From Psammoneis japonica (taxonomy: Eukaryota): a DNA stretch of 58,902 nucleotides. The stretch is taken from contig QPGO01000059.1 in NCBI GenBank assembly GCA_008632985.1, positions 372,001 through 430,902 on the forward strand. The letters run 5' to 3'. A model generated the notes under the pieces. That model made no database searches and was not told where the DNA came from. It saw only the letters and a list, made by a program, of their open reading frames with translations. Position 1 is the first letter of the stretch. Every line of letters starts with the position of its first letter. A program made the position numbers and the translations under genes. Below, piece by piece: positions 11,203 through 58,902 of this stretch.

Positions 11203-12446
11203 TTATCGATCCCCTTGCTTGCGACAAACTGGACAACTGTCATTCATTCCTCGATAAATGGGTCGATTACTTGTGGTGACGTCTGTACCATATTGATTCC
11301 ACCAATCGAAAAAGCAACTGTAGCAGAAACAATGCGTGCACGCTCCGACTTTCAACGAGTCACCACCGCGTTTGCGACAAATGCCACATTTGCTGCTAGG
11401 TGATTTGGGCAAGACCAGAGCAACGGCTGTTTGCTCTTCCACTCGCTCTTCTCGTTCTCCCGAAGAGCAACCAAGAGCAACAGCCGTAAGATAGTTTCTT
11501 AACGCTCCCACCTCTCCCGCCCTCTGGCCCTGCCGTTCCAGCTGGGGTTTTAGGAATGAGGCTTGCGCATCCGCTAGTAAAGCCATTCCGGGTGGACGAT
11601 GTAGGTGGACGATGTAGGAATCGTCCTTTTTCTTTCTCTTCCACTTCATAGTGCCGGAACAATCGCATGTTTTCTTCCATGGAAGCCCACGTAATCATCA
11701 CGTTCATGCAGCACAGCTTGCGCAATGATTTTCTTGGCGGAAGCAATGTTGCCTTGGGCACGAAACGCCAGAGCGGCACACTTGTGCACGCCTGAGCAAT
11801 AGAGTTCCAATTGCATGCCCATTTCACCCGTGCAAATGGCAAATTCCCAGTTTCCCAATTCGTGCCAAAGCTTGGAGGAAAACATCCGAAGTTCAGTGCC
11901 GATTCAAGTCTCATGAAATTCTTTTGCCTGCAACTCTTCAATTTCGAAGACGAGTCGAACGGCTTGGCCGTAATCTTTCAATCCAAGAACGGCCGTTGCT
12001 CTTCGAGTCATCATTAACAACTTATCGTTTATCGTCAAAAAACTGTGGGCCTTTTTTTGCAAGCACCAATTGTAAAAGTCATGCACCTCTTGATGCTTGT
12101 TGGCCTCCATGTGAATGGATCCCTTCATGAGAAGCGCCGAGTGCAAGGTTGGGTCCAAGAGGAACTCCTCCACTGCAATGGATTGCAAGCTGTTCCCTTG
12201 CAGTGTCTTGTCCAGTTCACAGAGTGACATTTCCAACAACCATTTCTTGATGATCGGATTGGCTTGATGGTGCACCCTGGCCTTGCACACAGTGACCTGG
12301 TTCAAAGCAGTTTGACGGTGGACTGCCACAATGGATTGCAAGCTGTTCCCTTGCATTGTCTTGTCCAGTTCACAGAGTGACATTTCCAGCAAGAACCATT
12401 TCTTGAAGAGATCAGATCGGCTTGATGGTGCACCCTGGCCTTGCAC
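11203..12446 (-). pseudogene. Broken TPR-like + C-terminal RING-finger gene
   Basis: C3HC4 RING (CGIC...CTHCFCYSC...CPVC); helical repeats upstream; in-frame TGA at 11904, frame break near 11646, 13-bp tandem duplication at ~11592-11617; 5' part lies in a TA/CG-depleted domain. Confidence 0.6.
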
Positions 12447-12478
12447 ACAGTGACCTGGTTCAAAGCAGTTTGATGGTC
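12175..12478. repeat. Tandem duplication, ~150-bp unit
   Basis: caatggattgcaagctgttccc...ggttcaaagcagtttga present twice; several of the differences fall at CG sites. Confidence 0.9.
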
Positions 12479-13489
12479 TGCCTCGTCATCACTGGATCAA
12501 CAGAGTGGACAAGTCATTGCAGCAGTGGTGGTGAAGGAACTGCTGCCAGATGCTGTGGTCATGATTTTCACACACAAATTCATCCACAGCAAAATCCATT
12601 CTGATGCAGCACCTTGAGAGCCACAACCAATGGTGTGTCATTGTTTTCCAAAGGCTTCAGGCAGATTCTGCATTTGCTGTTGATCATTGGAAAATCACTG
12701 CTGGGCACCACATGATCTGCTTCTTCTGTTGTCTTGGCTTTGCATCACTCTTGCATTGCACTTTCAATTCTTCCAAGGCAGTTGTGCATCACAGGGGGGT
12801 GCTGCTCTCACTGGTGTGGCCAATGATTGATTTGGGTTGGCACAAACAGTCAGCAACAAGCAAGGTTGCTTCATGACTGTGTGTGGGCTTTTTTCTCATT
12901 TTTGTTGCATTGGCTCTTCCTGCTCTGCTGATGCCACATGCCATGCCAACTTTTTTTTCATTTTTTGAATTTGCTGCAACAGAATGTTTCTTTTAAAGGT
13001 GCGATCATGAAGCAGCGGTGGCCTCAGTTGTTTGCCGCATCACAATTTTTTGCTGCCAGCCCCTCCCCCACCCCCACAACACACACATGCCACTGAGAGC
13101 TGCAGGCATCTCATGATGCACAAAGCAATGTCCTCACTGACTCAACAAGCACAACTCAATTCCAGCACAAATTTGCCACAGAAATGCCTCAGGTGGAAAC
13201 CACCAAACCATGTCACCATGGCAAGAAATCTGTGGGGTCGCCACTTTCTTGGTGGTGTCACATTTAAGAGCCACAGCAGTCAACATCACATTGCATCTTG
13301 AAAACTCACACAAGGGAGAATCAACATGTGAGAGTGCAGTGGGCCAATTGTTGGCTCACATGGTCAAGAAGCAAAAGGCAAAACATCAAATGCTTTGAAA
13401 GCACATCAAGGCACATGCACATGACACAAATCACATGCTGCCACAATGTGTCAGTGTCATGGTGAGTTGTGGCCATTGATGGAGCATGT

Positions 13490-13870
13490 TCAATTTGCAG
13501 CTGCCATTGTCATTGCATGGGAGCAAGTCATGAAAACTTCAAGTGAGTCCTCATCATTTGTGCACAAGCAAGTGAGAGCACTGACTTCAAAGCTCTGCTT
13601 TGCAGACTCTGTTGGATGATGGATGGACAACTCTGCAAATTTGATTGGCTGGGTGGCCAGGGCCAGTCTTGGGTCATCATCTGCAAGGGTCTCTCCCAAC
13701 AGTGCCGGCAGGAATTGGCACTTGATCACTTCTTCCACATTGGCAAAAGAGTCAGCACAATCCTTCGCTGCAGGCTGGGTGTGCTGCCACTCTTTGAGCT
13801 GCAAAGACTTCTGCAGACCAACATGGGCTGTCTGTGGGTGGTGGACCGCCATCTTGGTGAGTCCCTGGAT
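13490..13870 (-). mobile_element. Decayed non-LTR retrotransposon RT C-terminal fragment (CRE/R2-like)
   Basis: HPQTAHVGLQKSLQ..EWQHTQ...VEEVIKCQFLPALLG..RLALATQPIKFAELSI resembles YPQTAY.GL.KSLQ.EWQY...FLPAL...LP.K..GL of such elements. Confidence 0.6.
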
Positions 13871-14888
13871 GACTGAGATTTGCCCCCTGGTCATCTCTGC
13901 CATCTCCATTCATCACCAAAGGCTTCTTCCCCATTCTCCCATGATGAAGCCCAGGCGCAGTGGGGCTGGCTGGCTTTGGTGCTGAAGCTGAGGTCTCCAA
14001 AGCAGTTCTTGGTGTTCTCCAGACTGTGTGCTGGGAGACTGGGATGTTCTTGGAGTTGTCAGTGGGACAGCAACCATTTTGCAGTGCTTGAAAGTCCCCT
14101 GCTGTGGCTGAGCCCTGAGGAGCACACCAAGGAGCAAAAACACGTGCCTGAGAAATGCTTGCTCACCTCATGGATCAGTGTGGGAGAAGGCCCAACCTGC
14201 ACACCACCATGCCCAGTGGGTTGCCCTGCCCAATGCCTTTCTTGCCGAGGAGGAGGGCGAATGATCCGAGGTTTCCCTGGGCGATGATGATCAAGATGCT
14301 CCAGAGCTTTTGCAGCAGTTGAGGACAATCCGAGCACCAGAAGGCCACTCATGCCCAACTGTGAATGGCACAGGCATCCTGTTCTTCTTGTTGAAGCCAT
14401 TGGAGGGAGGCCCATCAACAAAAAGGAACCTGTGGAGCTGTCCTCAAATTTGTGTTGTTCCTTGTGCCTCTCCCGATTTGACCAGAAGTTTTGTCCAGCA
14501 CGAGTGAGTCTCTTCGCCATGAGAGCCCGATGTGCTGCCTTGCTGACCAGTTTGTGAACATGCCGTACACAACGCTTCTCGAAGCAATGCACTGGCTTTT
14601 CCATGACGGAGAAGCCATTCTGATGCGGGCATCAGATCCGCCATGTCCTGCGCTCCCAAACAATCTTCGCGCGACGGTGTCGACGTGACACGATGATGAC
14701 ATCGCTCTTAGAGTTTAGCATGTGGCAGAATGTTGAACTTTCTGCAGACTTTCTGCAGACTTTCTGCGCAAATTACAGTATGAACAAATTTGTTCTCCTG
14801 CATGCGCAATCCTTCAAAAAAAAAGCGAAGGAGAAGCGGGTTCGACTGGACACAAGAAGGTTAAAATCGAAAGGCCTACACATGAGGG

Positions 14889-17213: not shown

Positions 17214-17714
17214 TTTGGAGGTAGGTAGATTCCATTGCCGAGATGTCTGCCTTCTGCCCATTCTTGCGATCGCCTCGCTCTAGGGTTCCTTCCGAACATA
17301 TGTGCTTTCAATTAAAGTAATTAACATCGTGAATATCTGATCTTATGCAGCACTTGTGTCCACGGCAGATGCAGCTCGTTTGGGGCCACATTCTTGAAAT
17401 CGACTTCCAGGAGAGAAGAGAGGATGGCTTCCCCCGACATGTGGAATGCTCCAGATGAGCCAAGTGCGAAATAATAACTACTAGCAGAGTGCTTTGAAGA
17501 ATAGAATTCATGTAAAAGAGCGCTCAGGTGATGGAAACGAGGCGGTCGTTTTTGGTCCTTTGTTCCTTGGCGCCCAATTCTTCTCCCCATGTGCAGATCT
17601 GAATGCTTTATCTTCCGAATCTTTTGAACCGCTCGTCCTTCGCTGCTGTTCAACGTGGAATCCACAATCATTCTACTCTACGTACACACATTCTCAGCAT
17701 CTTTCTACATGTCA

Positions 17715-19930
17715 AATTTTTGGCTCAAAAAACTCTGGTTCGCAGCGGCTCGTCCTCATTCATCATTGTTTCATTGACACCATGACATCCAAAAAGAGGT
17801 GTCACTGGCTCCCCTGCAACATCAACTGCAGCGGCACAACTCCCGTCCATGTCTGTTTTCACCCAGCTCCCTTTGAGCTGTGGGACAGAAACGTCAGCAT
17901 TTCAGCAGTTTCCCAGCAGATGAGAGCTGTTGCTCCACTTGCCTCAACAAGAATTGAAGGGACACGAGGCTCAATCCAATGCTTCCATCCAAGTGCTGCA
18001 GTCTTTTGACGGCATTTGCAAGTGACGGCATCAAAAGCATGGCATCACAGCATGCGTTGTGGTGGTTGAAGCAGCCTCCTCTGTCTCATGGCAAATTTTG
18101 ACCTGTTTGTGGGGTCATGTTTTTCAATCTGTGGCAAACAGCCAGTTGTGCAGATGGTGATTTTGTTTTGACTGTGAAAGTTGAGAAGTTTTGTGCTGTG
18201 GGGTTTGACTCCACCCCCCCCCTCAAATGAGAAAAAAATGTTTTGCCATGAGAAATTCCCCCTTTCAGCCATCATTGGAACACCTCTGCCAGTTGTCCCA
18301 ACAAGAGCACAGTTGTCAATGATTGCTTGTTTGCTGTCTTTCCAGCTGCTGTCTGCAATTGCAATTGTTGCACAACTTGGTGTCTCGCTGCTGACAGTCA
18401 CATGGTTTCTTGCCAGGCTGCTGTGCTTCTCAATGTCAGCTGTGCACACCGCCCCTCAGCATCTTTGTGGGTTTCTGCACAATGTCTGGGCCACAGCCAG
18501 CTTTTCATTTCTTGCAGCAATGACATGGCAACACAATTTGTCAAACCTGCACCGGGGGGTCCATCCAAGAAGAGTTGTCAAATGAACAAGGTGCTTGGCA
18601 TTGTTGTGTGCCACGCATTGCGCGCACATTCTGCATGTGATCCTCTGCAAAATTGCCCCATGCTCTCCCATTTTGCAAAGCCAAAGGCCTTTTATTTTGT
18701 GTGCTTGTGAGAACAAAAATGGGCTTGGCATTTTTTCATCATGTTTGAACAACACACCTGAGCAAGCTGGAGAGTTTGTGCATTGACAAAGTTTCCCATT
18801 TTTCTGATGGGGATTGTTGACACATTCATCACCCAACAAATTTGGTGCAGAGCTTGTGTTCAGAATTCTGTGAGCCCAAGCAACGTCACACAGAGTCCTG
18901 CTCAGGGCCAGAGCACACATCCAACAGCAGCTTGGTCAACTCCCCTCTGTGCTGATTCTCCTGTGCAGCTCTGCTGCTCCTCTCTGGGCCAGCAGCAAGA
19001 AAAAATGGCCAAGAACAATGAGAGACTTGCTGGTGGGCAACACTGAGAGCCCTTGGAATGGCCGCCATGTGGCAGAAGAATGCAGAAGAAAGTGGATGAG
19101 GGGCAGACAACAGACTGACAGAGAGAGAGGCTTCTCCAGCTCCCCACCATTGTTGTTGGTGGCAGATGATTGATTGGCAGTGATGGGGTCAGCTGCGGCA
19201 ACCCAAAATGGTGTCAACAGCACTGAAAGTGCTTTGCTCCATTGGTTGTTGGTGTGTTTTTTGCACATCAGTTGCTTGCCCGCTTCACCTGGTGTTTTGC
19301 ATTTTTGTGATTTGGCTCCTCAGCACTCAGCCAAAAGAAACATGAGTTGCAAAAAGTGTGCCACAGATGCCTTTTTTTGGGTGGCAAGGCTGTGTTGCGG
19401 CACACAACAGTCATCCAGAATCAAGGTCTCCATCTGGTGCCTGCTTGCATCTGCAGGCGGAGCAAAATCACCTTCCATTGCAGCAGAAATGTGCTCCACA
19501 CTTCATGCCTGTTGCTTTGAAGAGGTGGCTGGCTCAAATCATCTCAGTCAGAAGGGCAGCTCTCTCTTCCAATTTGCACTCCGATGAGTCCAACCCTTCC
19601 ATCTTTGAACACGCGGCAAGAATCTTCATGACTTGGTCAACTGGGTGACGAAGGGTGCCCCCCTGAGCTCAGCTTGCTGCACAAAAGAGTGGTGTGGGCC
19701 TTGCCACAGTGCTGCAAGCTCAACTGCCTCCCTCGAGCCTGAGCTTCACCAGCACTTGAGCCTCCTTTGTGTGGGGGGTGCCAGCCACCAGCCAACAGTG
19801 CTCATGGGGCCCACACCCACAGCGGCATTTGGGTCCACTCGGGCAGACATCACCAAGGTGCACCTTCATTTTTTGAACAACAACTGCTCCACAACGTGTG
19901 ACATGAGAATGAGGTGTCTGCAGACACACT
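17715..19930. other. TpA/CpG-depleted hypermutated domain 2
   Basis: Roughly one TA seen (tttatt at ~18693) in ~2.2 kb; ends abruptly at ctctactctctagctagctag. Confidence 0.85.
17782..18035 (+). pseudogene. RNASEH2C: Decayed RNase H2 subunit C-like gene copy
   Basis: MTSKKRCHWLPCNINCSGTTPVHVCFHP resembles HxLPCxIxYxGxAPVxxYFxP with Y->C; a downstream frame gives IQVLQSFDGICK*RH, resembling FxxIxxWxH; frameshifted. Confidence 0.5.
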
Positions 19931-20146
19931 CTCTACTCTCTAGCTAGCTAGCAGCTGGTGGCAGGAGAGGACGAACAAAGCAGAGACGACCCAGCCAGGT
20001 GTCCGATGTCCCGCGGCTGACGTCCGCGTTCTCATTTTTCACGAACGACATCCGCGGATCGCAACGCATTCAACATCGCGCTTCACGACAAGAACCAAGT
20101 GTGATGGGTCGATTAATGCTCATTTCACCATTAGACTCTGCTTATA

Positions 20147-30354: not shown

Positions 30355-30391
30355 CGAAATCGAATGCCTTGCGCATCAATGTGAGAAACGT

Positions 30392-42050: not shown

Positions 42051-42332
42051 AATGGCGGACAAACGTCATCCCGGACGTCCGCCAGACTTGAGACTGTGGC
42101 GCGGAAATCTCGTTTGGAATTTACAGTCCCGGTAGTTGTGTTGTGGGAATGTTCAATTTCGATTGAGCTACTAGTCTACGTTACTTCGTTGCTTGACTCT
42201 ACTCTAGAGTAAAAGTATCGTATCTGTTGGGCATCGTTGTTCATTGATTGGTCTTTTAAACTTATCTTTAAAATGAAATATCTTTTTCAAAAAAAGATGT
42301 GTTCAAAATAATGCAAAATCAAAAGTAGATTT

Positions 42333-45690: not shown

Positions 45691-45758
45691 AGTTTCAAAG
45701 TCATCGAAAATATCCAAAAACACTTCTAGCACTTGCCGCCACGCGAATCACAGCAATC

Positions 45759-45966
45759 TGGGGGAAGTCTCCAGCCAGCTGCTGGCTGAAAAAAGTCTGC
45801 TCGTCAGTGCGTTTGGGGGTTTTGCAAGTACAATTTTTACGTACGCTAAAGAAAACGAGTCTGTCCAGCGTTCACCAAAACCCCCTAACGCACAGATCGA
45901 CAGACTCTTTCAGTACAAATCCTACATAAAATTCTTCAGCCAGCAGCTGGCTGGAGACTTCCCCCA
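45759..45966. mobile_element. 208-bp MITE with 32-bp perfect TIRs, TG...CA ends and AATC target-site duplication
   Basis: tgggggaagtctccagccagctgctggctgaa (45759-45790) / ttcagccagcagctggctggagacttccccca (45935-45966); aatc at 45755-45758 and 45967-45970. Confidence 0.85.
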
Positions 45967-46259
45967 AATCCAAGAAACAACCACGACCATCTCAAGCACA
46001 AGCACGCCACGAGGGAGGATGCAGAACTGGAGGTGGCAAGAATGAAGCTCTGCGGCTACGAAGGCAGTGATCGATTGAACGTGTACTACAATAGGGAATA
46101 TGACGGCTGGTATGTTGGGCGAAGCAAAATGGGATACTAGGTTGTTCTGCCATGAGCCCACTTTTGTGATGTCCGCCGTATCTTATGTTAGTAGCCAAAC
46201 ATTGCGTCTTAAATTCTAATTCTTTCTTGTATCTACTGGCCGCCTGCTTGGTACTTAGG

Positions 46260-47390: not shown

Positions 47391-48199
47391 TGTTTTAACA
47401 AACTTCGCTGATGGTGCTTTGGATAGACAACAGCTCCAACGAACGCCATTGCGATGCAGAATTTTGATTTTCGTGCCGAGCGGTTGGATTGGTGGCAGCT
47501 TTCTACGTAATATTTGTGTAGAAACTTACATACGAGAGACGTCGTATCTCTCTATCTAGGTACAGTATCTACTCTATAGGTATGTACAGAGTATCCTTCA
47601 GAGTCTGTCTGTGTCCCGTTTGAATCTCTCCGAGACTTTTTTTGGAACAGTTGTTGAGTTTATTTTTTGAAAAAGCATCTCACATGAATTGCCAATCACC
47701 AACGGTTTTCCTCTTTCCTTGCCATTTTTCAGCTCAGCACCGGAGTGCAGCTCACAACCTAGAGGATAACTCACTTGTTTTTTGTGCTGCTCCACTTTTT
47801 TAAGTGGCGCTGCTTTGACACATCATTCTTTGAACAGCGCCACAGAGAGAGCTCATCGTTGACCGCGATGGATCCCCTGACAAGCAAATGCTTGAAACCA
47901 TCATCTGTGGACAAGTGTCTGGCAAATTCTCTATCTAAGACCTTCACACCAAAAAAGCTTGCATCATGCACCCATGGTTGCATCACCTTCACATCCTGTC
48001 CAGCCAACACTGAATGCTGCCACCTTCTGTGCTCAAGAAAGAGCACCCGGGGCACGGCATCTGCTGCGAGACCTCCATCATGAACAAAGCACTCAATGCT
48101 CTGATGAAAAATGAACAAACCACCCCCCAATGTGTAAAGTGAGTGGCTGTCACAAGTCATTCTTGCTCCTGAGCCTCATCAGAAAGATGTCGCGGACAT

Positions 48200-49400
48200 C
48201 AACGAATTCATGTGGTGACTCTGCATCAGCCCCCCACATCAACCTCAATCGAGTGACAAAGAAGCAGTCTCACACTGCACCCCTTGCTGTGATGATGGCT
48301 GCCATGGAGCATGGTTTCAGCTTGGCTTGGCTTCACATTTTTGCCTGCTTGGTGCATTCAGTGGACATTGTCAAATCAAGATGGGGGGCACGGCAAGCCA
48401 CCAAAACAGCACTCTCTTGCAGCTCCACAAGGGGGTGTGGGGAAAGTGCCGACACATGCTGTCATGCCCTTTGGAGTCATGAACAAGCCCACCACATGTG
48501 TCACATGGTGTGCAGCTTGAAGAACAACTGGGAAAATGAAGCCAAAGTCATGGGCACCACACTTGATGACAGCGGCAGCTCCGCCACAAACATTGACGAC
48601 AATTTTGGATTTGTGGAAGAAGGGTGTGACACAGGCCTGCAACATGTCAAGGCAATCCTTTGTGTTGCCCATGCCTCTGCAACCTGTCTTGGAAACTCAA
48701 GAAACATCTGTTCTTCCCAAAGCTGGTCAAACTTGTGGGTCAGAATCTTGCAAAACTTGGAAACCTTCCAGCACACTCCACACTTTGCAGACTGACTCAA
48801 GCACATCCATGAGCTGGTCAAGAATCATGACTTCAGTCACAAGATCAATGATGCCAAATGGGCTGATGCCCTCAACAGCAAGTTTGAAGACATCAAATCT
48901 GCCACATTGTCTGAGCCACTGCTCCATCAAGTTGACGGCAAAAAAAGTGACCACACCTGCATGCCGACTTTTCAGGGTGGGGGGTGGGGCATGCACTGCT
49001 CAAGCCAGGAGACACAAAGCATCATTGGCAGCTGTGGAAAGAGAAGATGCAGGTTGGAAGTGTGAACTCAACATGCCCCCATCTGGCCTGCACCTCTTTC
49101 CATGCACATTTGGCTCACAATGGTGCAAAGGCATCAAGCGATGCCTCCACTCCTGTGTTGGAGAGGGAGCAGCCCTTAGATGGGGCGATTCACAAAAGTC
49201 CTGCACAGCTCATGGCCATTTGCCAACATCAAAGACTGCCATGGGCTGCATTGGATTGCATGCCATAAAGGCTGCAATCCTGCCATTGTCTCATTGCAAA
49301 TGGAGCTGGCATCATGGCAGTTCACTGTCACCCATCAACCCACTGGCATTCTCATCAATGCCAACTGCTTCTCTCAATGCAGCCAAGAAGTTGACTTGGT
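48200..49400 (+). mobile_element. Decayed Ty3/Gypsy pol: reverse transcriptase + RNase H
   Basis: LNRVTK, TKTA, VMPFGVMN, NIDD, KLKK; LFPCTFGSQWCKG..LHSCVGEG, DCHGLHWI...LQMEL...HQP...NANCFSQ (resembles D..L.WI...HRP...DADYFSR). Confidence 0.8.
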
Positions 49401-49836
49401 CCCATGACCCACTGCCAGCTGAGCATGTCTCCACAGCACAAGAGCAACTGGCACCAGATCTTCCAGCAGCCACACAGGTCAAACCCAAGAATGTGCCCCA
49501 CTTTTGTTGTGATGCAAAATCTGCCAAGTCAGAGAATGTTGCCACCACAGTCCCCACAAACCTGTCCAATCCAAGTGAAGTGGAAGAAGCACCACTCGGA
49601 AAACCTGCTGAGCCAATTGCTCTCCACCCATGTTTCAGCACCATGAAATCATCATTTCAACTGGTGAACCACAATTTGGCACTGCATTGTTTCTCATTCA
49701 GCAACTTCTTCTCATCATGCAAAGACCATCAGATTCATTGACAGTTGTCATTGCTGCCAACTGTGACATGTTTAGTCAAAAAATGTTGTGCAAGACATCA
49801 GACAAGACCCTGTCATCTTGTCATCAGCAGCCCATC

Positions 49837-50268
49837 TCCTGAGTGAACCACATCAAGTGCAGCACCACACAGGAGCTTGAAGGGAGCCATGTGACGCCAC
49901 CAGATCCAGCCAGTGCATCTTCTCAGCTGCAATTTGCTCAGACTCAAGCAACCATCATTTGTGAATTGCAGCACTGGTGGTGCCACCTTGGTGCTTTGCA
50001 CTGCAAGCCTCCTCCATGTTCAAGCACACTGTCTTGTCTCAATTTTGCAAATCCTGAATGAACCACATCAAGTGCAGCACCACACAGGAGCTTGAAGGGA
50101 GCCATGTGACGCCACCAGATCCAGCCAGTGCATCTTCTCAGCTGCAATTTGCTCAGACTCAAGCAACCATCATTTGTGAATTGCGCTGGTGGCACCACCT
50201 TGGTGCTTTGCACTGCAAGCCTCCTCCATGTTCAAGCGCACTGTCTTGTCTCAATTTTACAAATCCTG
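49837..50268. repeat. Tandem duplication, 215-bp unit
   Basis: tgaaccacatcaagtgc...aaatcctg present twice, near identical. Confidence 0.95.
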
Positions 50269-51149
50269 CATGACAGAAGGATGGCACATCACAGAGGATC
50301 ACATCAAATGCACAACAACAGGTGATGCTGTTGATCACTCCACCTCATTCATGATTGGACTTTGCACAGGTGTCACAGGGGAGAAAGTTTCTGTTGACAT
50401 CCTTTGACCAACCCCAACAAAACCATCCATTGTGCTGCTTGACACCCTTGCAAACCCTTCAACTCCAAAAGCTTTGGGACATCTGCTCTGCCTGATGCCA
50501 CAAATGCTGAAGCCAATGATGACAAGTTTGCCCTGGAGACTGTCAATCCCATCCAACCACCATCCCTGCTTGAACTGTGATGGTGGGACAGCCAATCAAG
50601 AAGGGTCCCTGACCCTCCAATCTGTGCAGTGTGGAGGTGTGTGGTGTGGGTCATCCAGCTCCAGCCACTGGCTCAGTCAACAACAATGCACATTCAGTCA
50701 CCTGTTTGACACCCTTTGTCATCAAGATGAAGAATCAAAACCCAAATTTGATGCATCTCTGCTTGTGAGTGTGTGTCTTGTTGGGATTTGGAGAGTGCAA
50801 CCTCACATGCAAGTCATGTGCAGACACATGTCACCTCAATTTGTTGGCAAGTGGCACACTGAAAAAGCAGCCGCACAACTGACTGACACACAGCTGTCAT
50901 CGGTCAAGCTCATTGACACATTCACAGGAAAAAGCTCCAGCCACAACTGCTCAAGCACATTTCCCAATGGCTCAACATCAACCCATCTTCCAAGTCATTG
51001 AACTTGGACCCAGGAACACTGTCAAGATCCTGTGACAAAAAGCATGATGGGCATGCACCAATCTCATCTGACCTGTCCTCAACCAACAAAAAGACAACTT
51101 GCAGAAGATGCACTTCTGCTGTGAGCAACCCACACATGCAGGAAATGTC

Positions 51150-52450
51150 ATCATCAACAATGATGCACTCATTCTCCACAAATCAGTTGACTCTGCAGGA
51201 AATTTTGCAAAGCTTTGAATCACACCAGCCTCTCTTCAGAATGTTGTCTTTGTTGCACTCAACACAAAACCCACAGGCAGTCATTTCAGCATGTGCTGCA
51301 CTTTCCATGACCTTGTCAAACTCCAGCACTGTTGACCCAACATGTGTGAGCACATCACAGACTGGATCAGCAAATGCCAAGGATGCACACTGGCCAGTGC
51401 GTGACACCAGAAGAAATGTGAGCTCGTGCACTCCTTTTTGGTTGATGAAGTGCTCAAACTCATCCATGTGGATGTGCAGCACAATGTTGGACATCAACAG
51501 GGGTTTCATCAAGGTGAAAAATGTCACATGGATGTGGTTGATGGCCTGAGCACATTTGCAGCATCCAAGAAAGTCCAAGGCAAAGTCAATGCCAACAGTT
51601 TCAGAAGAGCCATCATGAAAATTCTCCGGAGCCATGGCCTCTGCCATGCTGTCATCATCAACAAAAACTCCAAGTTCTGTGGAGCATTCATTCAGGCTGT
51701 GTCTCCCTGGCAGGACTTGACCTCCATCAAACATCAGGAGGCAACTGTGACCTGGTGTTGACCAAATGTTGTCACATGCTCCTCAACAAATCCCTCCAAA
51801 TGTTCTGCACTGAACAAGACTCAGTCCACACTGGTGCCAAAGGTGTCCACCTTGCAGCACATGCATGGAGAAGTGCTGCCCCAGTTGTTGGCACTGACTC
51901 ACCAAGCTGACTCCCAGAGCTGCTGTTGGTTGCAACCATCAGTTCCCATTCAAACTGTGCCAATTCAAAGCATGTCAATCTTCAGCCAATGTGACAAGCA
52001 GTTGCACAATCTCCTCTCCAAATGTCAAGAAGCACTCAAAATCCTCATCCAAGAGCATCAAGCCATGTGCCATGAGCACATCAGCAGCAATCACCTGGAT
52101 CCACTGGTGCACTCTGTGTTGGACACTTTGTTTTAGTTCAACAAGCCATCAAATCAGATGCCCAACACAGACAAATCAACAAAATTGTGTTTGACCACAC
52201 TGGCCCATGGAAAATCATTGAAAGGATTCCAGGAGCCTTGCATTGCATCCATCGCTGCAGCAGGACCAAAGCAGAGGACAAAAGGCATGCTTCTCACATT
52301 TCCCCATGCCCTCTGGAGCCAGCTCCTTTCCCTCCTTTTGCAGGACCAGACAACTCCTGTGGACACATCAACAGAGCAATCAAAAAGAAGCACCCTTTTC
52401 TGGAAGCTGGCATTGACTCCCACATGCCACTCCAACCCTGAAAACTTGCT
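51150..52450 (+). mobile_element. Decayed Ty3/Gypsy integrase
   Basis: Zinc-finger-like region (GSHF...PNMCEHITDWISKCQGC), IHVD...VVDGLSTFA...HGLCHAVIINKNSKF core, HTGPWKII GPY/F motif. Confidence 0.75.
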
Positions 52451-54951
52451 GATCTGAGCAGTGCACCACCATCCCAGTCCTTGCCATGTCTCTGGCAAAC
52501 ATGGCGTGCATTGGATCTGCTGTGCACTTTCCAACACTTGCTGATTGTGATGACAAAGAATTTGATGGGGTGCACACTGAAGATGAGCTCTTGCCAGCAG
52601 CAATGGATCATTGCAAACCTTCATTGAATCCTGTTTTCATTGAGACACTTGAAGGCATCAAGTCCATGATTGGACTGTTGCCTGCACACTGCACAGCAAA
52701 ACTGCAAACTGTCCCAGTTGGTGCCAAATCCAAATCACAGCTCATGTCTTGCATTGTCTGGAGCAAGCACGCAGAGCATTCTTCATCTGCAAATGACCGA
52801 GATTTCAAATTTTTCACAAAACTTGTCAAAACACAACAACAACGGCAACCACAAATGCAACGTGCTCCATCAATGACCACAAACTCACCATGACAATGAC
52901 ATGTGTTGATGGCTTGCAATCAACTTCACATGCACATGCCTTGCTGTGCTTTGAAATTGATTGAGTGCTGTGAAAACAGCTGAAATGGTGGTGTTCAATG
53001 TTTTGCCCATCACTTTTTGACCACACAAGTCAACAACAAGCCCGCTGTGCTCTCGCGTGTCAATTCTGCCATGCATGAGTTCACAAGATGTGATGTTGAT
53101 TGTTGCAGCTCTGGAAGGCAACACAGTTGAGAAAACAGTGACCACAGAGTGGTCGCCATGGTGGGGTGGTTTCCAGGAATTTCTGGCTGTGGCAAACCAA
53201 TGGCAAATTCACACCAAACTGAGTCATGTGCCCACCATTGCCAGTGGCAGGGCTGGCAGCAACAACAAATCATGACTTGGCAGGAAAAACAACTGAGCTT
53301 CTCAGAGGGCAAAATTTGTGTTGAACTCTTCATGCAACATCCACACAATGTCCAGCTCAATGCTTTGAACCAGACTTTTTGGAAAGAATGTCACAAACTC
53401 AATGGACAATTTGCCCTCCATGACAATTTTCATCTGCTCAAAACACCTCCCAACAAGTGCCAGCAAAAAGCACCTCATCATCTTCTTGCAATGGGCCCAT
53501 GTTGTTGATCATGCAGATGTGTGCCTCCACTGCAGACCCTTCAATTTTGCCATGATCAATGGCCAGCAGATGATGCATGGTGTCAAGCAAGTGTCCTCCA
53601 AAGAATGAGCATCTTGTCAACATTGTCTCAGCAATGCAAGAACAAACCCCCAAGCAAGCAGCCATCCCATCCACAATTCTCACATCACATGAATGCACAG
53701 CAACAAACTGACCATTGGGGCCCCACCACAGAAGCCCACGCATCTGCTGTCCTTGCTCATGAGTGTGTGCACAACTGTTGAATGTTGAGCTGTCACAAGC
53801 CATTGCACTTGAAAGCTGAGCTCTCAAACAATTGGTGAGCTCTGAATGAACTCCCACATCTCTCAAAATCTTGTCTTTCTCAAATTTCATTTCGTCAGTC
53901 AAATTCAGTGCTGATTTGGTGCCAAAACCATGCCCCAGCAAGCCCAAAATGGGTGCCCCAAATTTTTTTTTCTTTTTCAATCAATGCCCTTCAGGTTTTT
54001 GTGACCATGCTTTTCCTCCTGGCCTGTCACATCCTTTTTCAATGTCCCCATGGTGCTCTCTCTGCTCTTCTTTTTAACACTGTTTGGGAGGCATTGTGAA
54101 AATTTTGTGGGGAAAAGGGCAGAAATGAAACAGTGCTGTTTGCAAATGTGCCAATTTGTGGAAAAACGCTCAAATGGCTTGAGGGCAAAGAGTGCAGCTG
54201 AGAGCTGCCTCACCATGCAAACAATGCAACAATGGCCAAAATGCCGCCATTCATTGAAGGCAATGGAGGAGGTGGAGAGGCATCCAGGCCTGTTCCAGCT
54301 CCAGGTGCTCCGCTTTTCATCACGCTAGATTTTCTGTGCAGTTTTCAGCACCAGACATTTTTGTCTCCACCCGGCAGAGCTTGCACTTTTTGGCTTTTTG
54401 TGAACATCAATTGTTTGAATGACGCAACATGTTTGTCATGTCAGTGCTCATCTGCAACAACTGAGGTGCATGTTGTGTCACAGGAAGAATCGTGTCAGTT
54501 GGCATTTAATGTTTTTCTGGTGATGCGCAGAACAATGCTGACTTCTGTGAACACGTGCCATCCACCCAACACACACACCAGCCATGATGCAGCACACCAC
54601 TGTCACCACTCCACAACCCCCTCTTCTGCTCCTTTCATTTCAAAGTTGTGTCATTGTTGTCACAACACGATTGCAGCTCTAAGGAGTGGCTGTTGTTGCA
54701 GACAACACCATCTCTTCATGTTCCCTTGTTTCAAATTCGGCAAGTTGATTCATCGTGTTTTTTTTGCACGTCACCGTGCGCGTGCATTTTTCTGGTTGCT
54801 TCTCACGTCTCGTTTTATGGTTGTTTCGCACCAGGGCCTTCGGAATTTCTACAAAACTCAAGTGTTCCCCCAAACATTCTCCAAGTGACAGTTGCCACTG
54901 GAACAAACTTGTCTTGGTTTGTTTTCACTGTGATGCTTGCTGTTTGCACTT

Positions 54952-55180
54952 TTCAGCATCTGGAGCTGCCTCAGAGGCTGCCTCTGTTCATCCGCATCAC
55001 TTTTGCGGTGACTGATGTTGGCCCCATCTCTGGAGTGCATTTGTCATGCAAGCGGGAGTGCAGCTTGCTGTTTGATGCTTTCCAGCATCTGGAATTGCCT
55101 TGGAGGCTGCCTCTGTTCATCTGTGTCACTTTTGCGGTGGCTGATGTTGGCCCCCTCTCTGGAGTGCATTTGTCGTGCAC
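54952..55180. repeat. Direct repeat, ~100-bp unit, ~129-bp period
   Basis: cagcatctgga...gaggctgcctctgttcatc...ctctggagtgcatttgtc present twice. Confidence 0.9.
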
Positions 55181-56329
55181 AAACAGGAGTGCAAAAGCAA
55201 TGCAATTGCCATGGACATGTTGGCCAAAGCAGCCTCCCAGCAGCATCCCATTGGCGGCAGTTCCCCTCAAGCAAACGATGACTCTTCCAGCACATTGAAG
55301 GTTTCCTTTTGCATCCAGCATTGCATCAAGGCACTCAAGGAACATTGCCCGCCACAGGGCAAAGCCAAAACTTGGTGCACTGTGCCTCTTCAAGATGCAG
55401 TTGATCCCCTTGCGTGCCCTCAAGGTCTTGCAGATTTGAGCGTCTTGACCACGGAAGATTGTGGAGCCAAGAAGATGAGCCCTCTCTTTCATGTTCTTCA
55501 TCACAAGAATGGCTTCAATGGGTTCAACAGTGCCAAAACACGGAACATGTTCCGCAACACTGTTGTTGGCTGGTTTTGTAAAAAAAATTTAATGCTGAGA
55601 ATCGACTGCAACCAAACCAATGCATCAAGGACAAGAGCCAGCACCTCTTGATGTTGGTTGTGGTGCCATCAGGAACGTCAATGAGGGATGCCATGAAGGA
55701 CAAGCAAAACATTGCCGCTGTTTTGATGCACCGTGTCATGACAAACATTGGCCTGCTTGTTGATTGCATCCTCCGTGTGACAGAGTCTCAGGTTGTGGAG
55801 GTTGGGATGGGCAATGAGAGACTGTTGATTGCACCATCGAGTCAAGGTGTTTGTCCTTTTTTGACTGGACTTGCCCAAGCCATTTGCTGTGTTGTTGTCA
55901 AGAGATGGATGCACACCTTCATTGTCAGAAGACATTGAAGTCTCATCACATGGGAGAGATGGGTTTGAGGACATCATGGACACCATGAGCAATCGTTCCA
56001 ACCTGGCGAATGTCCACAAGCACTGGAGTGGGGTCATCTCATGCAGAATGACAGAGGCAACACTGGTTGCCCTGTGTGCAAAGGAGACGGTTGCTCCAAT
56101 GGCTCTGCAATTGTTTTGGCATTGTGCCTCGCTCCAGCCCAGAGTGTCAGAATGTCGCAACAGAGATTTGCAGCAATGAAGACTGTTGGGAGCAACCACT
56201 CAATGAAGGAGGATGCATTGCTGATCATTCGTGCAATGCCAAGCACCAATTCCACAAGGCATCTTTGGTCAACATTCAAAACCTGGAAACGTGCGATGAC
56301 AAAAAGTTGACCAAAGATTTGAGGATCCA

Positions 56330-58700
56330 TTGTGGCTGCCTTTTGACAATGTCATGCACAAAAGTTGGTGGCAAATTAAGTCTCCAAAGGGAATGAAGAA
56401 CCATTTTGAAATGTTGGCTTTGAAGGGGTTGCATGTCAAGCTCCACTGTGAAACAAGACATCCCGTTTTATCTGCAAAACAACACTGGGGTTCAATCTGC
56501 AACCATCGCTCTGTTCAAAACGAAATCGCTCAGAGGAAGCAGGTGGATGAAAAGCTGCGTCGAAAACCATGCATCAGCCATAAGAAGTTGAAGAAGGCCA
56601 ATGTGGACGACAGCAACGATTGTGTTTTTCATGACAAGTGTCACAAAAGGGAGAAGCTTGAACAGTCAGACGATGACATGGAGGAAGATCCCCACATTGC
56701 CAAACTTCCCACCAACGTAAAATGCAAAGTGCTCACAAGTTGCATGATTGGCTGCCGGAAGGTTTTCTCATTTGGGCCATGTGACCCCAATGAGACACTG
56801 CCATCCGAGGCATTGTTTGACATTGTTGCAGGTTGGTGGCACAACCATGTGTTGCAGATTGACACTGGTGGTGAGTGCAAAGGCTGTCAGTGTCCGCCGG
56901 ACAAGCGGTGCAAGCCTCTCAAGCCACAACAATGCTCCGAGTCAGTGGAGGCCATCACCAAAGACAAGCACATCTTTGAAGTTCACTTCCCCACCGGACC
57001 AAGCAGGAAGGACTGCAGCAAAGAGCTGCTTGCTCACCTTGCTGATTGGTGCAAGGCAGCTCCAGGACTTGCATGGCACAAGTTTTGCAGAAGGATTCAT
57101 TGCCATTGTCACATGGATCACGCCAGTGTCTGTGATGCAAGGATGAAAGAGTTCGAGGAGGAAAAGGAAGAGGGAAAGGAGGGCACTGAAGCAATGGATG
57201 ACCTGCAAAAGGCCAAGGCTGGCACTGCAAGGTTGCAACTGCGAGACAAAAACCAGGAGGAGGAAGATGGGGCCATGGATCAATCAACTGAGGAAGAGGA
57301 GGAAGATGATGGTGTGCAAGATGAAATCCAGGAGAAGCAAGATCCAGGTTGGTCCATGGATGAATCGACTGAGGACGAGGAGGAAGATGATGACCAGGAA
57401 GAAGTTTCTGAAGCCAAGGCTGCAGAAGACTTGGCACTTGGAACACAAAGGTGGAGAAGAGGGAGAGAGTGGGAGACGCTGCATGCAGACGTGCAAAACA
57501 GCTCATGAAAGAACAACTGGAGCACAAAAGGATGAGGATCTCATTGGCCTTTGCAGCTCCAGGCCAAAACCAAGGGCAAAAGGAGCCACTTCATGGCATT
57601 GGTTGAGCAAAGAGCAGCAACACCAAGAAGAAAGGGATCAAGTTGAGTGTGAGCACAAAGACACTCAAGTGATGTTGTGGGCTAAAAAACTCATTTGGAT
57701 TGATCCAAGTTCATGGAACAGCAGGCATCAGCATCCTTGCAATTCCGAAGGAGCTGTTCCTCACTTGTTTGGTTTTTTGCTTTGAAGGAAAAAACGAGGG
57801 CGTCATGTTGTGGGAAAATTGGTTTGATGTGCGATGCAATGAAATGAATGGCCATCCCATGAACATGTGTGCGGCCTCATCACACATGCAAACACAAACC
57901 AAACGTTCCCTGCCAACTCAATCAAAAATGCAGAAACAAGATTTAGGACAAGGTGGAGTCAATTTGCAACCCACCACAGATTGCCAAACTGAAGAGATTG
58001 GCTGAAGCAGAGACTCAAAACCTTCCACCTGTTGGGCAGGGAGCTGATTTCATTGGCCACAGCTTGGAGGGGAACCGTCCTGTGCATGTAACCCTGGATT
58101 GGGCTGAGTGCAATTTCAAGTTTCGGTTTGTAGATGTGTGGAAAGATTTGAAAGAATTGAAGCCATCGGATGGTTGTCACTCCTTGCCGGAAGGAAACGT
58201 GTTGATGCCATTGAACAGTGACTTGCCAATGAGCGCCCACCTGTGAAATTCCTGCAAGGACAAAATGACACTTGCATTTTTTCCTCCCTGGCCAGTGTTC
58301 TTGATTGTGCTGGCAACGTGGAAATGAGAGACTGCATTGCTTCTCACATTCAAACATCTGCCAACTGTGCCGACACTGACAACAAGTGCACGTTGTTTGC
58401 AAAGCACATGTTGAATGGTTGTTTGAAGGGAAAATTCCTGCCTGCAAACTCAAACATCAAGTTTTGTGGCAGTGTGGATTGAACGATTTCCTTGGAAGCG
58501 GGTGGTGAATTTGATGTGACAACCTGGCAATGATGACTTCATGACTTTGTGCCATCTTGTGAACAACCACTGCATTGCCTTGCACCGTGGTTGGATCTTT
58601 GATTCCAACACCCTTTTGCATTGCCAGCAAAGGACATTGGATGCTTGAACTGTTGTCTTGGGAACAAGGAACATGAGGTGGAGTGCGTGGCAAAAAAGCA
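56330..58700 (+). pseudogene. Decayed large ORF with acidic tract and C-terminal Cys-His-Asp (papain-like?) module
   Basis: E/D-rich region at 57150-57420; FLQGQNDTCIFSSLASVL ... NNHCIALHRGWIFDSN across frames. Confidence 0.4.
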
Positions 58701-58902
58701 TCTGCAACAAGTGTTCATGGTGTGCCAGTTTGAGCTTCCTGGGGTGGTGCAGCAGCAGTTGTGTGGAAAAAGGAAAGCTTTTGTGTTGGATGGTTAATCT
58801 GGTTGCACAATGTAAAGTGACAATCACAGTGTTTGTTTGCTTTCCCATTGCCATTTTGTTGATCAGACTCGTCACTGTCACTGTCCCCTGCTGCACTCTT
58901 GC

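Follow-up and report, generated by a model that had tools for sequence, protein, structure and literature searches.

We describe six sharply bounded blocks of diatom nuclear DNA in which TA dinucleotides are nearly absent and CG dinucleotides are depleted within the same boundaries. Our comparisons support a domain-restricted conversion of TpA to TpG or CpA, together with CpG to TpG or CpA, in transposon remnants and a pseudogene. It is likely that these domains underwent saturating, context-specific transition hypermutation while residing in the chromosome. Judged from aligned homologues, the loss is mutational and not a native composition. An earlier reading of this DNA from its letters only (the sequence-only reading) knew of no described system of this kind. 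That statement is outdated, because a 2026 preprint by Mettrop et al. reports that integrated viral DNA of Bigelowiella natans undergoes TpA>TpG/CpA hypermutation de novo (bioRxiv 10.64898/2026.01.13.699255).

Six blocks depleted in TA and CG

The window, that is, the whole stretch of 58,902 nt that was analyzed, contains six blocks with sharp edges that total 20.8 kb (20,826 bp), leaving 38,075 bp outside. Block edges were set from TA-free gaps. The TA-depleted, sharply bounded blocks of the sequence-only reading are thus confirmed as six, with edges about 50-300 bp from those it had proposed. Its description of the signature holds for the loss of TA, but CG is lost too, which it had mentioned only as background CpG decay. 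Segments and features are as follows, with observed/expected ratios abbreviated o/e.

B1, 12074-14566, no strand: TA-free, CG-poor; TA 2 (o/e 0.013), CG 25 (o/e 0.16)
B1 inverted fragment, 13199-13532: homologous to 52817-53178 in B6 (tblastx summed E = 1.5e-22)
B1 tandem duplicate, 12176-12319 and 12329-12477: units differ at CG/CA, TG/CG and CG/TG sites
B2, 17707-19934, no strand: TA-free, CG-poor, two sharp boundaries; TA 1 (o/e 0.007), CG 30 (o/e 0.22)
B3, 30701-32546, no strand: TA-free, CG-poor; TA 4 (o/e 0.035), CG 30 (o/e 0.26)
B4, 36592-37971, no strand: TA-free, CG loss intermediate; TA 2 (o/e 0.021), CG 34 (o/e 0.43)
B5, 40011-42122, minus strand: decayed copy of an amino-acid transporter gene (Aa_trans); TA 10 (o/e 0.077), CG 90 (o/e 0.67)
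B6 (whole), 48136-58902: reaches the window end; split into B6a and B6b
B6a, 48136-53710, plus strand: putative 5'-truncated Ty3/Gypsy-type pol remnant; TA o/e 0.013, CG o/e 0.10
B6a tandem duplication, 49837-50273, plus strand: two units of ~215 bp, 95.6% identical, differing at TG/CA, CA/CG and TG/TA sites
B6b, 53711-58902, no strand: TA-poor, CG-reduced repeat that continues past the window end; TA o/e 0.051, CG o/e 0.32
B6b tandem duplicate, 54935-55062 and 55063-55193: three CA/TG double differences

With flanking DNA as the expectation, the blocks contain 42 TA versus ~843 expected (o/e 0.03) and 335 CG versus ~1097 expected (o/e 0.27), and TG and CA stand at o/e 1.81 and 1.78. Outside the blocks, the corresponding values are 1542 TA (o/e 0.58), 2005 CG (o/e 0.96) and o/e 1.17 for TG/CA. 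The remaining 12 dinucleotides hardly shift between blocks and outside DNA, and the combined deficit of TA and CG (~1563) is balanced by the surplus of TG and CA (~1642). Because TA and CG both end as TG/CA, GC content stays near 48-50% (0.48-0.50 in blocks versus ~0.47 outside). TA-free runs reach up to 1941 bp; at the TA density of outside DNA, a run of this length has a chance of ~7e-35. Edges of TA loss and CG loss coincide to ~50 bp, the genes flanking the blocks are spared (TA o/e ~0.58), and CG o/e varies by block from 0.10 to 0.67.

A Pfam domain was recognized only in the B5 transporter, and five of the six blocks have no surviving Pfam domain. For B2, B3 and B4, a transposon identity was not found with Pfam, with Atlas (for the B4 ORF) or by comparison with Gypsy proteins. 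Specifically, B2 had no match to Pfam and no significant match to Gypsy proteins, B3 had no match in the Pfam search, and the B4 ORF at 37061-38164 gave weak retroelement-like leads only (Atlas, score 0.79). The "LINE-like" label formerly given to B1 was not confirmed. All four peptide strings quoted by the sequence-only reading were located, at 49357-49377(+), 52196-52210(+), 13823-13840(-) and 41594-41608(-). The ancestral motifs that it had quoted for comparison were replaced by alignments to database homologues.

Copy number differs among the affected segments. In contigs of sequencing run X1, B6b is high-copy from ~54273 onward, with a summed depth of 1000-5000 versus ~59 for single-copy DNA. 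B6a is near single-copy in this run, and single-copy at 80% likeness or more. Another high-copy repeat, at ~45000-46300, retains normal TA and CG, so copy number alone is insufficient for targeting.

A probable Gypsy remnant gives the direction of change

B6a shows the most complete erasure. It contains regions resembling reverse transcriptase (RT), RNase H, integrase and a C-terminal region, and its left edge is the truncated end of the transposon fragment. Its assignment as a probable Gypsy remnant rests on weak homologues of the RT-RNase H region and on a tblastn alignment that runs colinearly along residues 189-1823 of an intact polyprotein, P0130.

Aligning B6a to P0130 gave 1280 codon columns. 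Where P0130 has tyrosine (49 columns), B6a reads CAY (His) at 19, TGY (Cys) at 10, Phe at 7 and other codons at 13, and never Tyr. Where P0130 has arginine (66 columns), Arg is kept at 6, and B6a reads CAN at 28, TGA at 4 and TGY at 2. In contrast, control pairs of intact Gypsy-family proteins keep 54.7% of Tyr and 55% of Arg, with Tyr replaced by His at 8.8% and by Cys at less than 1.6%. These comparisons bear out, in quantity and against real homologues, the earlier claim that TAY had become TGY or CAY, and they show the direction of mutation. Intact relatives lack this pattern. Because Tyr has only TAY codons and all 49 columns are non-Tyr, the pol gene has been destroyed, not recoded.

Inferred single-step changes, for which ancestral states were taken from homologues at 30-69% identity and not from a family consensus, are concentrated at TpA and CpG. 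In B6a, a T lies 5' of 37.5 of the 68.5 A>G changes and an A lies 3' of 38 of the 61 T>C changes, as the proposed enrichment of A->G at TpA would have it; G>A changes have a 5' C in 56 of 83 and C>T changes a 3' G in 10 of 18. A->G at TpA on one strand is indistinguishable from T->C at TpA on the opposite strand.

The strand symmetry claimed by the sequence-only reading applies to B1-B5 and B6b but not to the Gypsy pol segment at 48136-53710, in which CA exceeds TG (779 versus 587, p = 2e-7). One tally states symmetry for five of the seven segments, with the CA bias in B6a only. This excess is unaccounted for under a strictly symmetric process acting in situ.

A decayed transporter gene copy

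Block B5 confirms that a pseudogene is affected as well, in that the transporter copy carries TA loss, stops and frameshifts. Matches to Pfam Aa_trans are spread over three frames, identity to diatom permeases is up to 69%, and all named homologues are diatom proteins, which agrees with the diatom origin supposed by the sequence-only reading. The tblastn alignment contains stops and frame changes, and transversions are also present. Among 10 conserved Tyr columns, B5 reads Tyr at 3, TGC at 2, CAY at 2, Phe at 2 and Trp at 1. The copy keeps 216 of 294 conserved residues, yet ~87% of the expected TA is gone; the TA rate is therefore far above background. With TA nearly gone and CG loss partial, B5 is the youngest block. 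Its domain is wider than the coding region, extending ~320 bp 5' of the probable start Met (~41803) and ~510 bp 3' of the final codon in the alignment (40524).

Tandem duplicates, relative rates and a protected context

Tandem units inside the blocks differ by adjacent TG/CA double changes, plus sites with CG or TA in one unit versus TG/CA in the other. In a repeat outside the blocks, units differ by mixed transversions. Outcomes in the duplicated units were independent, a given site having ended as TG in one unit but as CA in its partner.

The ratio of logarithmic (ln) decay of TA to that of CG is 5.6 in B5 and 4.2 in B4, from which we infer that the TpA process was ~4-6x faster per site than CpG decay in these two youngest blocks. 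Around surviving TAs, 48 of 94 flanks carry T on the 5' side, versus 681 of 3096 outside (OR 3.7, p = 2e-9), which suggests that the process disfavors TA with a 5'-flanking T (TTTA/TAAA).

Read support

Contigs of run X1, at a k-mer depth of ~59, come from a sample shared with the assembly, which may itself have been built from this run; their support is therefore not independent. The TA-free blocks recur in these contigs at 6-18 differences from the window per 1.3-2.7 kb, and to this extent the reads support the assembled bases. For a 6.2-kb contig, all 17 differences from the window were listed. At 39747-41890, in or beside B5, 10 of 11 differences are exchanges of TA/CG versus TG/CA, as opposed to 0 of 6 elsewhere on the contig (Fisher p = 6e-4), and difference density is 5.1/kb versus 1.5/kb. 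Seven of the differences in or beside B5 are of the CG type, and at six of these X1 has CG and the window TG/CA. At least 13 variable places occur in the high-copy family of B6b.

A proposed mechanism and its alternatives

The targets would comprise remnants of transposons, one high-copy repeat and a single dead copy of a gene, in each case together with flanks of a few hundred base pairs. Two conversions took place within common boundaries, one of TpA and one of CpG, each yielding TpG or CpA. Either one turns a self-complementary pyrimidine-purine dinucleotide into TG/CA, which would no longer be a substrate. We propose that the TpA process is active and targeted, and that it responds to the state of the domain, be it silent chromatin or DNA methylation, and not to copy number alone. 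As the most likely chemistry, and in line with the proposal for B. natans, a candidate enzyme would deaminate adenine at TpA, giving hypoxanthine, while 5-methylcytosine would be deaminated at CpG. TA is contained in every Tyr codon, in TAA and TAG stops, in TATA-type promoter elements and in AATAAA-type signals. The effect would be irreversible inactivation.

Adenine deamination is one candidate only, and oxidation of thymine at TpA would give an identical footprint. Under the same targeting, a TET/JBP-type dioxygenase would oxidize the T of TpA, and the resulting 5-hydroxymethyl- or 5-formyluracil would mispair with G and yield T>C, with oxidation or deamination of 5mC at CpG alongside. 5-Formyluracil is mutagenic, and dinoflagellates have 5hmU at TpA. 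A TpA>TpG change on either strand reads as TpA>CpA on its complement, which makes the base that is hit indistinguishable; both targets would be 5-methylpyrimidines in a self-complementary YpR step, and one enzyme acting on such pyrimidine-purine steps would explain the common TA and CG boundaries. However, nothing in the present data points to thymine modification, and the four- to sixfold difference in rate between TA and CG in young blocks is fitted equally well by two activities. In addition, the sole published proposal, in the B. natans preprint, is an ADAT2-like DNA adenine deaminase (bioRxiv 10.64898/2026.01.13.699255). We therefore regard a thymine lesion as unlikely.

Editing outside the chromosome is improbable. 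Here, ADAR-like A->I editing of transposon dsRNA, or a deaminase acting on first-strand cDNA, would be fixed by reverse transcription and integration, so that blocks were hypermutated on arrival. B6a is a retroelement whose sense-strand excess of CA has the polarity expected from A/C deamination of minus-strand cDNA, and differences between tandem units could arise on one edited molecule. Moreover, ADARs favor a 5' U (bioRxiv 10.64898/2026.01.13.699255). Against this, B1-B5 and B6b are strand-symmetric, ADAR leaves the CpG>TpG/CpA loss with common boundaries unexplained, and the B5 domain takes in DNA upstream of a start codon. The signature-type differences between the window and X1 at single-copy B5 imply that change occurred after insertion. 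Near-100% removal of one dinucleotide is also beyond ordinary ADAR hyperediting. In B. natans, the mutations arose de novo in chromosomal single-copy DNA of mutation-accumulation lines sequenced with Illumina (bioRxiv 10.64898/2026.01.13.699255).

We give slightly less credence to a passive property of silent chromatin, in which biased repair or replication at flexible YpR steps in late-replicating methylated heterochromatin, plus ordinary 5mC decay, would act with no dedicated enzyme. The chromatin-like domain boundaries shared by TA and CG changes agree with it, but the retention of residues in B5 despite its TA loss does not, and we know of no comparable TA loss in methylated heterochromatin of plants or animals. 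The B. natans rate, ~1000-fold over background and on in some lines only, likewise suggests regulated activity (bioRxiv 10.64898/2026.01.13.699255).

Very improbable is a sequencing or assembly artefact, in which the heavy base modification of silent chromatin, 5mC at CpG plus another modified base at TpA, would lead to systematic miscalls and the real DNA would keep TA and CG. The only runs containing the stretch come from one sample, and long-read consensus errors at methylated CpG could mimic the six CG-type differences in which X1 has CG. Nevertheless, a k-mer depth of ~59 is not expected of error-prone long reads, and the X1 contigs show few differences, as against a shortfall of TA and CG that runs to hundreds. 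The frameshifts, stops and transversions of B5 are typical of real decay, P0121, another Gypsy ORF in a different public assembly, is Tyr-free and Cys/His-rich, and the signature is also found in the Illumina lines of B. natans (bioRxiv 10.64898/2026.01.13.699255).

The least credible alternative, that these elements lacked TA and CG natively or on arrival (perhaps as an escape from a TA/CG-sensing defense) and that no resident copy was mutated, could in principle apply to a B6b family amplified already TA-poor, but it conflicts with the 29 of 49 Tyr positions that read exactly CAY or TGY, with the 3.6% Tyr of intact P0130, with the like change in a host-type transporter copy, with duplicated units that resolved one site to TG versus CA, and with the disappearance of Pfam domains from five of six blocks.

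Chromosomal hypermutation, our preferred reading, can be extended to a wider proposal that we consider rather doubtful. A heterochromatin-guided DNA-editing defense of diatoms, ancient and SAR-wide, would erase TpA and methylated CpG from silenced DNA by means of one dual-specificity deaminase or one 5-methylpyrimidine-modifying enzyme, recruited by readers of methyl marks. Deaminase-SAM-Tudor proteins, reportedly described by Iyer et al. in 2011 as restricted to stramenopiles, would be natural candidates. Given that the signature is also present in a rhizarian, this defense, if true, would parallel fungal RIP across SAR while shifting base composition the other way.

Comparison with known systems

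Fungal RIP, a genome defense, produces C>T changes mainly at CpA, creates TpA, lowers GC, and is triggered by duplication before meiosis. As in RIP, context-specific transitions riddle repeats or duplicated genes in bounded domains and destroy coding capacity. Unlike in RIP, TpA is destroyed here and GC is unchanged; with TpA removed and CA enriched 1.8-fold, C>T at CpA was rejected as the process. A duplication trigger would suit the B5 gene copy and high-copy B6b, but B6a is single-copy and the high-copy repeat at ~45000-46300 is unmutated.

The blocks also resemble the 5mC-driven CpG decay of vertebrates and plants, in which CpG>TpG/CpA changes in silenced transposons turn Arg CGN into CAN or TGN. 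Such CpG changes inside a presumably silenced element are found here, but they account for the CG half of the signature only, and TA is lost faster. In another diatom, transposons are described as carrying DNA methylation and repressive H3K9/K27 marks (PMC4504042).

ADAR hyperediting and APOBEC3 likewise leave deaminase-driven clusters of transitions in mobile elements. Their substrates are RNA or cDNA in transit, and their editing is partial and strand-polar, whereas here non-retroelement DNA and flanks are hit, most blocks are symmetric and one dinucleotide is almost wholly removed. ADAR editing fixed by reverse transcription fits poorly, because the flanks of the B5 gene are included, CA exceeds TG only in B6a and the coupled CpG loss is no product of ADAR.

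The closest precedent is B. natans (bioRxiv 10.64898/2026.01.13.699255). The products, TpA>TpG/CpA, are identical, and the A:T>G:C transitions at TpA are seen here through homologues and not through an ancestor. Both cases involve bounded domains of foreign or mobile DNA, here with spared neighboring genes (Gypsy in B6a, the repeat in B6b and the dead gene in B5). According to the preprint, TpA-depleted, CpA+TpG-enriched clusters are also found throughout the B. natans genome, and reverse-transcriptase and DDE domains are overrepresented in them. The host here is a diatom (a stramenopile), and B. natans is a chlorarachniophyte (a rhizarian). The preprint describes giant-virus and virophage insertions as targets, whereas the DNA affected here comprises remnants of LTR retrotransposons, one high-copy repeat and one dead copy of a gene. 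Mutations were seen de novo in B. natans lines, whereas here they are known from the sequence of one sample. Erasure is near-complete here (TA o/e 0.01-0.08), in contrast to a Rho of 0.45 in a giant-virus region of B. natans. CpG, of which the main text of the preprint makes no mention, is lost here within the same boundaries as TA, and surviving TAs lie in TTTA/TAAA contexts. What is new here is therefore the lineage, the near-saturation on transposons, the loss of CpG in the same domains and the protection of TTTA.

Depletion of TA and CG in six blocks

A 500-bp sliding scan resolved six blocks in which the observed/expected ratio (o/e) falls to 0-0.1 for TA and to 0.03-0.5 for CG and climbs to 1.7-2.1 for TG/CA, with GC content steady at ~0.48. 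Block limits were defined by TA-free gaps.

Limits of the six blocks (window positions)
B1: 12074-14566
B2: 17707-19934
B3: 30701-32546
B4: 36592-37971
B5: 40011-42122, minus strand, transporter copy
B6: 48136-58902

Dinucleotides inside and outside the blocks (counts, with o/e in parentheses)
Inside, 20,826 bp: TA 42 (0.03); CG 335 (0.27); TG o/e 1.81; CA o/e 1.78
Outside, 38,075 bp: TA 1542 (0.58); CG 2005 (0.96); TG o/e 1.17; CA o/e 1.17

The remaining twelve dinucleotides hardly shift between the two compartments. When outside frequencies are scaled to the blocks, a deficit of ~1563 TA plus CG is matched against a surplus of ~1642 TG plus CA. The longest run without TA extends for 1941 bp, which has a probability of ~7e-35 given the TA density outside, and the onset and end of TA loss lie at most ~50 bp from those of CG loss. 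The scan and the dinucleotide counts thus bear out the six-block TA depletion claimed in an earlier, sequence-only reading, and the four peptide strings cited there are all present where that reading placed them.

Two other intervals have low TA (o/e ~0.2), normal CG and only moderately elevated TG/CA: 42500-43250, within an ORF at 42333-43076 (minus strand) and covered by contigs of sequencing run X2, and 35500-36250, within an ORF at 34907-36031 (minus strand). Both look like ordinary low-TA genes rather than hypermutated blocks.

Contents of the blocks and neighboring genes

The window is eukaryotic and gene-dense with few introns, and its genes include those for mTERF, a lipase, an E2 enzyme, spondin-N, an ABC1 kinase and ribosomal protein L2/L8. 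We searched 127 six-frame pieces of the blocks (at least 80 amino acids each) against Pfam, which gave Aa_trans in B5 only, plus a sub-cut-off match to OTT_1508_deam; five of the six blocks had no Pfam domain match. The OTT_1508_deam match (50981-51235, minus strand; E = 0.003; 17.9 bits against a 27-bit cut-off) runs antisense to Gypsy pol, and we regard it as a chance match of Cys/His-rich sequence, ~0.4 of which would be expected over 127 queries. It is also disfavored by the clade's absence from those listed for stramenopiles in a table of Iyer et al. (2011, PMC3239186).

B5 is, on its minus strand, a decayed copy of an amino-acid transporter gene, with Aa_trans matches in three frames and with stops and frame changes in tblastn. 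Its 259 homologs in the database reach 69% identity, and all matches with a named organism are diatom (Seminavis, Trieres, Corethron, Skeletonema, Cyclotella, Cylindrotheca, Nitzschia and other genera). The host is therefore a diatom and not Bigelowiella; this assignment is drawn from the B5 matches, the sulfatase gene described below having given chiefly bacterial ones. The depleted domain passes the likely start codon by ~320 bp on the upstream side and the last aligned codon by ~510 bp on the other. Because it exceeds the coding part in both directions, the target is the domain, not the coding sequence. At 40650-40686 and at 41721-41755, the similarity of X2 contigs to B5 spans only ~35 bp each, beyond which the contigs continue into unlike sequence containing TA and CG; they probably derive from an intact transporter paralog elsewhere in the genome.

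The left part of B6 (B6a, 48136-53710, plus strand) is, judging from weak homologs and a colinear alignment, a 5'-truncated Ty3/Gypsy pol. Pfam recognized no Gypsy pol domain in it. A library-wide HMMER search of a representative library with its 406-aa Gypsy ORF as query returned eight matches only, all weak and to RT-RNase H, and a word-index search with the same ORF gave no match among 2315 candidates. The cluster of one of these weak matches contains an intact polyprotein of 1847 aa (P0130), with which B6a is colinear over residues 189-1823. Since the alignment starts at residue 189, the left edge of B6 corresponds to the end of a truncated element. When P0130 was used in a single-protein scan of metagenomes, 15 patterns matched and no relative was confirmed.

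From ~54273, the right part of B6 (B6b, 53711-58902) is a separate high-copy repeat with a summed contig depth of 1000-5000, compared with ~59 for single-copy sequence. An inverted fragment in B1 is related to positions 52817-53178 of B6. Neither Pfam nor, for B2, comparison with Gypsy proteins gave an identity for B2, B3 or B4, and an Atlas search with the B4 ORF (top score 0.79) yielded retroelement-like leads only. Self-BLAST and a transition-blind seed search with purine/pyrimidine encoding detected no long repeats between blocks other than B1/B6 and local tandem units.

Adjoining B3 is a sulfatase gene (28825-30375, minus strand; Pfam Sulfatase and SGSH_C) whose best matches are mostly bacterial, at 58-69% identity. 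Named matches include Verrucomicrobia (among them Roseibacillus, Puniceicoccaceae and Akkermansiaceae) and the planctomycete Novipirellula, and the gene looks like a bacterial acquisition of the diatom. With normal TA and CG, it is not hypermutated.

Direction of change

Tyrosine is encoded by TAY codons only. We therefore compared codons of B6a with the residues of P0130 over 1280 columns, P0130 being a relative of 25-46% identity and not the ancestor.

Window residues at P0130 Tyr and Arg columns
Tyr, 49 columns: 0 Tyr, 19 His (12 CAC, 7 CAT), 10 Cys (5 TGT, 5 TGC), 7 Phe, 13 other
Arg, 66 columns: 6 Arg, 17 Gln and 11 His (all 28 CAN), 4 TGA stops, 2 Cys, 7 Lys, 19 other

Intact proteins of the Gypsy family, by comparison, retain Tyr in 54.7% of columns, with 8.8% His and <1.6% Cys, and Arg in 55%; for transporters that are intact, changes from Tyr to His and from Tyr to Cys are each <1.4%. 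Substitutions in B6a were inferred along codon paths of a single step that lead from the residue in the homolog to the codon in the window.

Inferred substitutions in B6a and their contexts
A>G with 5' T: 37.5/68.5
T>C with 3' A: 38/61
G>A with 5' C: 56/83
C>T with 3' G: 10/18

The enrichment of A>G at TpA that the sequence-only reading had proposed is thus seen in these paths, as measured against a relative of such moderate identity. B5 is younger than B6a: 216 of its 294 conserved columns are intact, and its 10 conserved Tyr columns now hold 3 Tyr, 2 TGC, 2 CAY, 2 Phe and 1 Trp.

Internal duplicates provide a comparison within the window. Tandem units in the blocks exhibit adjacent double differences in which TG of one copy faces CA of its partner (one such double in 49837/50052, three in 54935/55063); other differences between them set CG or TA against TG/CA. 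The control, a tandem repeat that lies within a normal gene (8132/8273), carries mixed transversions and no TG/CA doubles. Such doubles imply that a single ancestral TA or CG was resolved separately in each unit. On the basis of homolog codons, internal duplicates and mass balance, it is well supported that the loss of TA and CG is mutational and in the proposed direction.

Read support and possible differences between haplotypes

The stretch is present in three runs only, all of one sample, which may be the source of the assembly; read support is consequently not independent. Contigs of run X1 carry the TA-free blocks at a k-mer depth of ~59, which indicates accurate reads. They differ from the window at 17, 18, 6 and 6 positions over 6.2, 1.7, 2.7 and 1.3 kb, respectively, far fewer than the hundreds of lost TA and CG, and so cannot restore them. 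Run X2, which covers neighboring genes, has no contigs for B6 and hardly any for B5; lack of cover does not signify silence.

In the 6.2-kb contig of X1, 11 of the 17 differences lie at 39747-41890, that is, in B5 and its left margin, and 10 of these 11 exchange {TA, CG} with {TG, CA} (3 TA-type, 7 CG-type), versus none of the 6 differences in the rest of the contig (Fisher p = 6e-4). These differences look like allelic divergence in which the signature process acted after the haplotypes split. Of the seven CG-type differences, however, six are CG in X1 against TG/CA in the window, an outcome that could also stem from consensus error of a long-read assembly at methylated CpG; each direction is seen among the three TA-type differences.

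In the left margin of B5 (39700-40010), the window and X1 differ at 39747 (TA/TG), 39753 (TG/CG) and 39801 (CA/TA), all of the signature type. The three sites are 200-260 bp beyond the edge of the TA-free block, in sequence whose TA density is still normal. The domain may be expanding, or may vary with haplotype.

An ORF in another public assembly has the same character. The 230-aa P0121, from a Logan assembly, contains no Tyr, 7.4% His and 5.2% Cys, and is 31% identical to the window Gypsy ORF (aligned part 48986-49660). Judged by this composition, P0121 was evidently called on TA-free transposon DNA.

Clues to mechanism

In every block, TA depletion exceeds CG depletion. The ratio of ln-decay for TA to that for CG, relative to outside, is 5.6 in B5, 4.2 in B4 and ~2 in older saturated blocks, which indicates that TA loss is faster than CpG decay and separable from it, despite common boundaries. 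A 5' T on one or other strand is overrepresented among the surviving TAs (n = 42; 48/94 flanks, compared with 681/3096 outside; odds ratio 3.7, p = 2e-9), as is a TT flank, at 30/94 compared with 240/3096 outside. TTTA/TAAA sites are thus either protected or places where new TAs arise. Surviving CGs in the blocks exhibit no flank bias.

Copy number is insufficient as a trigger, because a high-copy repeat at ~45000-46300 (summed contig depth 3600-4800 versus ~59) is unmutated, with TA o/e of ~0.75 and normal CG. This repeat is short and surrounds an assembly gap (N at 45301), with direct repeats at 45176-45300 and 45724-45846 and inverted repeats at 45209-45247 and 45932-45970; it escapes hypermutation. 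What sets the target may thus be length or chromatin state and not copy number.

No imbalance between CA and TG is seen in B1-B5 or B6b, and an excess of CA is seen on the sense strand of B6a (779 CA, 587 TG; p = 2e-7). This excess may reflect native retroelement composition, editing in part on minus-strand cDNA, or transcription-coupled editing. T>C before A on the opposite strand leaves the same footprint as A>G after T. Biased T:G mismatch repair was set aside as a cause, because CpG is lost, not restored, in the same domains. As leads to an enzyme, Iyer et al. (2011, PMC3239186) describe deaminases that are confined to stramenopiles and carry SAM and 1-22 Tudor domains as fusions, as well as a clade of Rossmann-fused CDD/CDA-like deaminases; both are candidates.

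Implications and comparison with known systems

Until a 2026 preprint on one chlorarachniophyte, Bigelowiella natans (bioRxiv 10.64898/2026.01.13.699255), no programmed A:T>G:C hypermutation was known for chromosomal DNA. The sequence-only reading, which knew of no described system of this kind, is superseded on this point. According to the preprint's main text, 231 of 302 new single-nucleotide mutations in mutation-accumulation lines fell in one integrated giant-virus region and one virophage region, at ~1000 times the genomic rate and in some lines only. Nearly all new mutations in those regions were A>G or T>C, and these GC-biased changes were all on TpA. The same text reports 124 clusters in which TpA is depleted and CpA+TpG overrepresented, with low-TpA genes enriched for reverse-transcriptase and DDE domains, and proposes an ADAT2-like DNA adenine deaminase. 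A full-text literature search, with most subscription journals beyond its reach, found no report of TpA hypermutation in diatoms or other stramenopiles.

A saturated footprint on diatom transposons implies that the TpA process is not limited to one alga or to viral insertions, and it ties the process to domains that lose putatively methylated CpG as well. The question now reaches a group with transformable model species. Protection of TTTA/TAAA would be an extended sequence preference that a candidate enzyme must reproduce, and a natural adenine editor of double-stranded DNA with a TA preference would be of interest to genome engineers. There are also consequences for annotation. TA-free DNA lacks TAA and TAG stops and therefore gives rise to long, spurious ORFs with no Tyr and an abundance of Cys and His, and the TA-free state conceals transposons from Pfam and BLAST; as a result, repeat content and "orphan genes" are mis-estimated in such genomes. 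Tyr-free ORFs, in protein databases too, and windows with low TA and high TG+CA are cheap markers for finding more cases.

Among known processes, ADAR- or APOBEC-type editing in transit fits the window poorly. Ordinary decay of 5-methylcytosine accounts for the CG half of the signature only. Fungal RIP is a functional analogue with the opposite outcome, in that RIP creates TpA. The B. natans system has the same footprint (TpA to TpG/CpA), and the window differs from it in its diatom host, in being near saturation, and in its targets, which are remnants of LTR retrotransposons, a family of repeats and a defunct gene copy rather than giant-virus and virophage insertions. In addition, CpG is lost in the window within the boundaries of TpA loss, whereas the main text of the preprint does not treat CpG, which its supplements may cover. 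The best description of the window is therefore a diatom case of the newly reported hypermutation at TpA, with CpG decay coupled to it in the same, putatively silenced domains.
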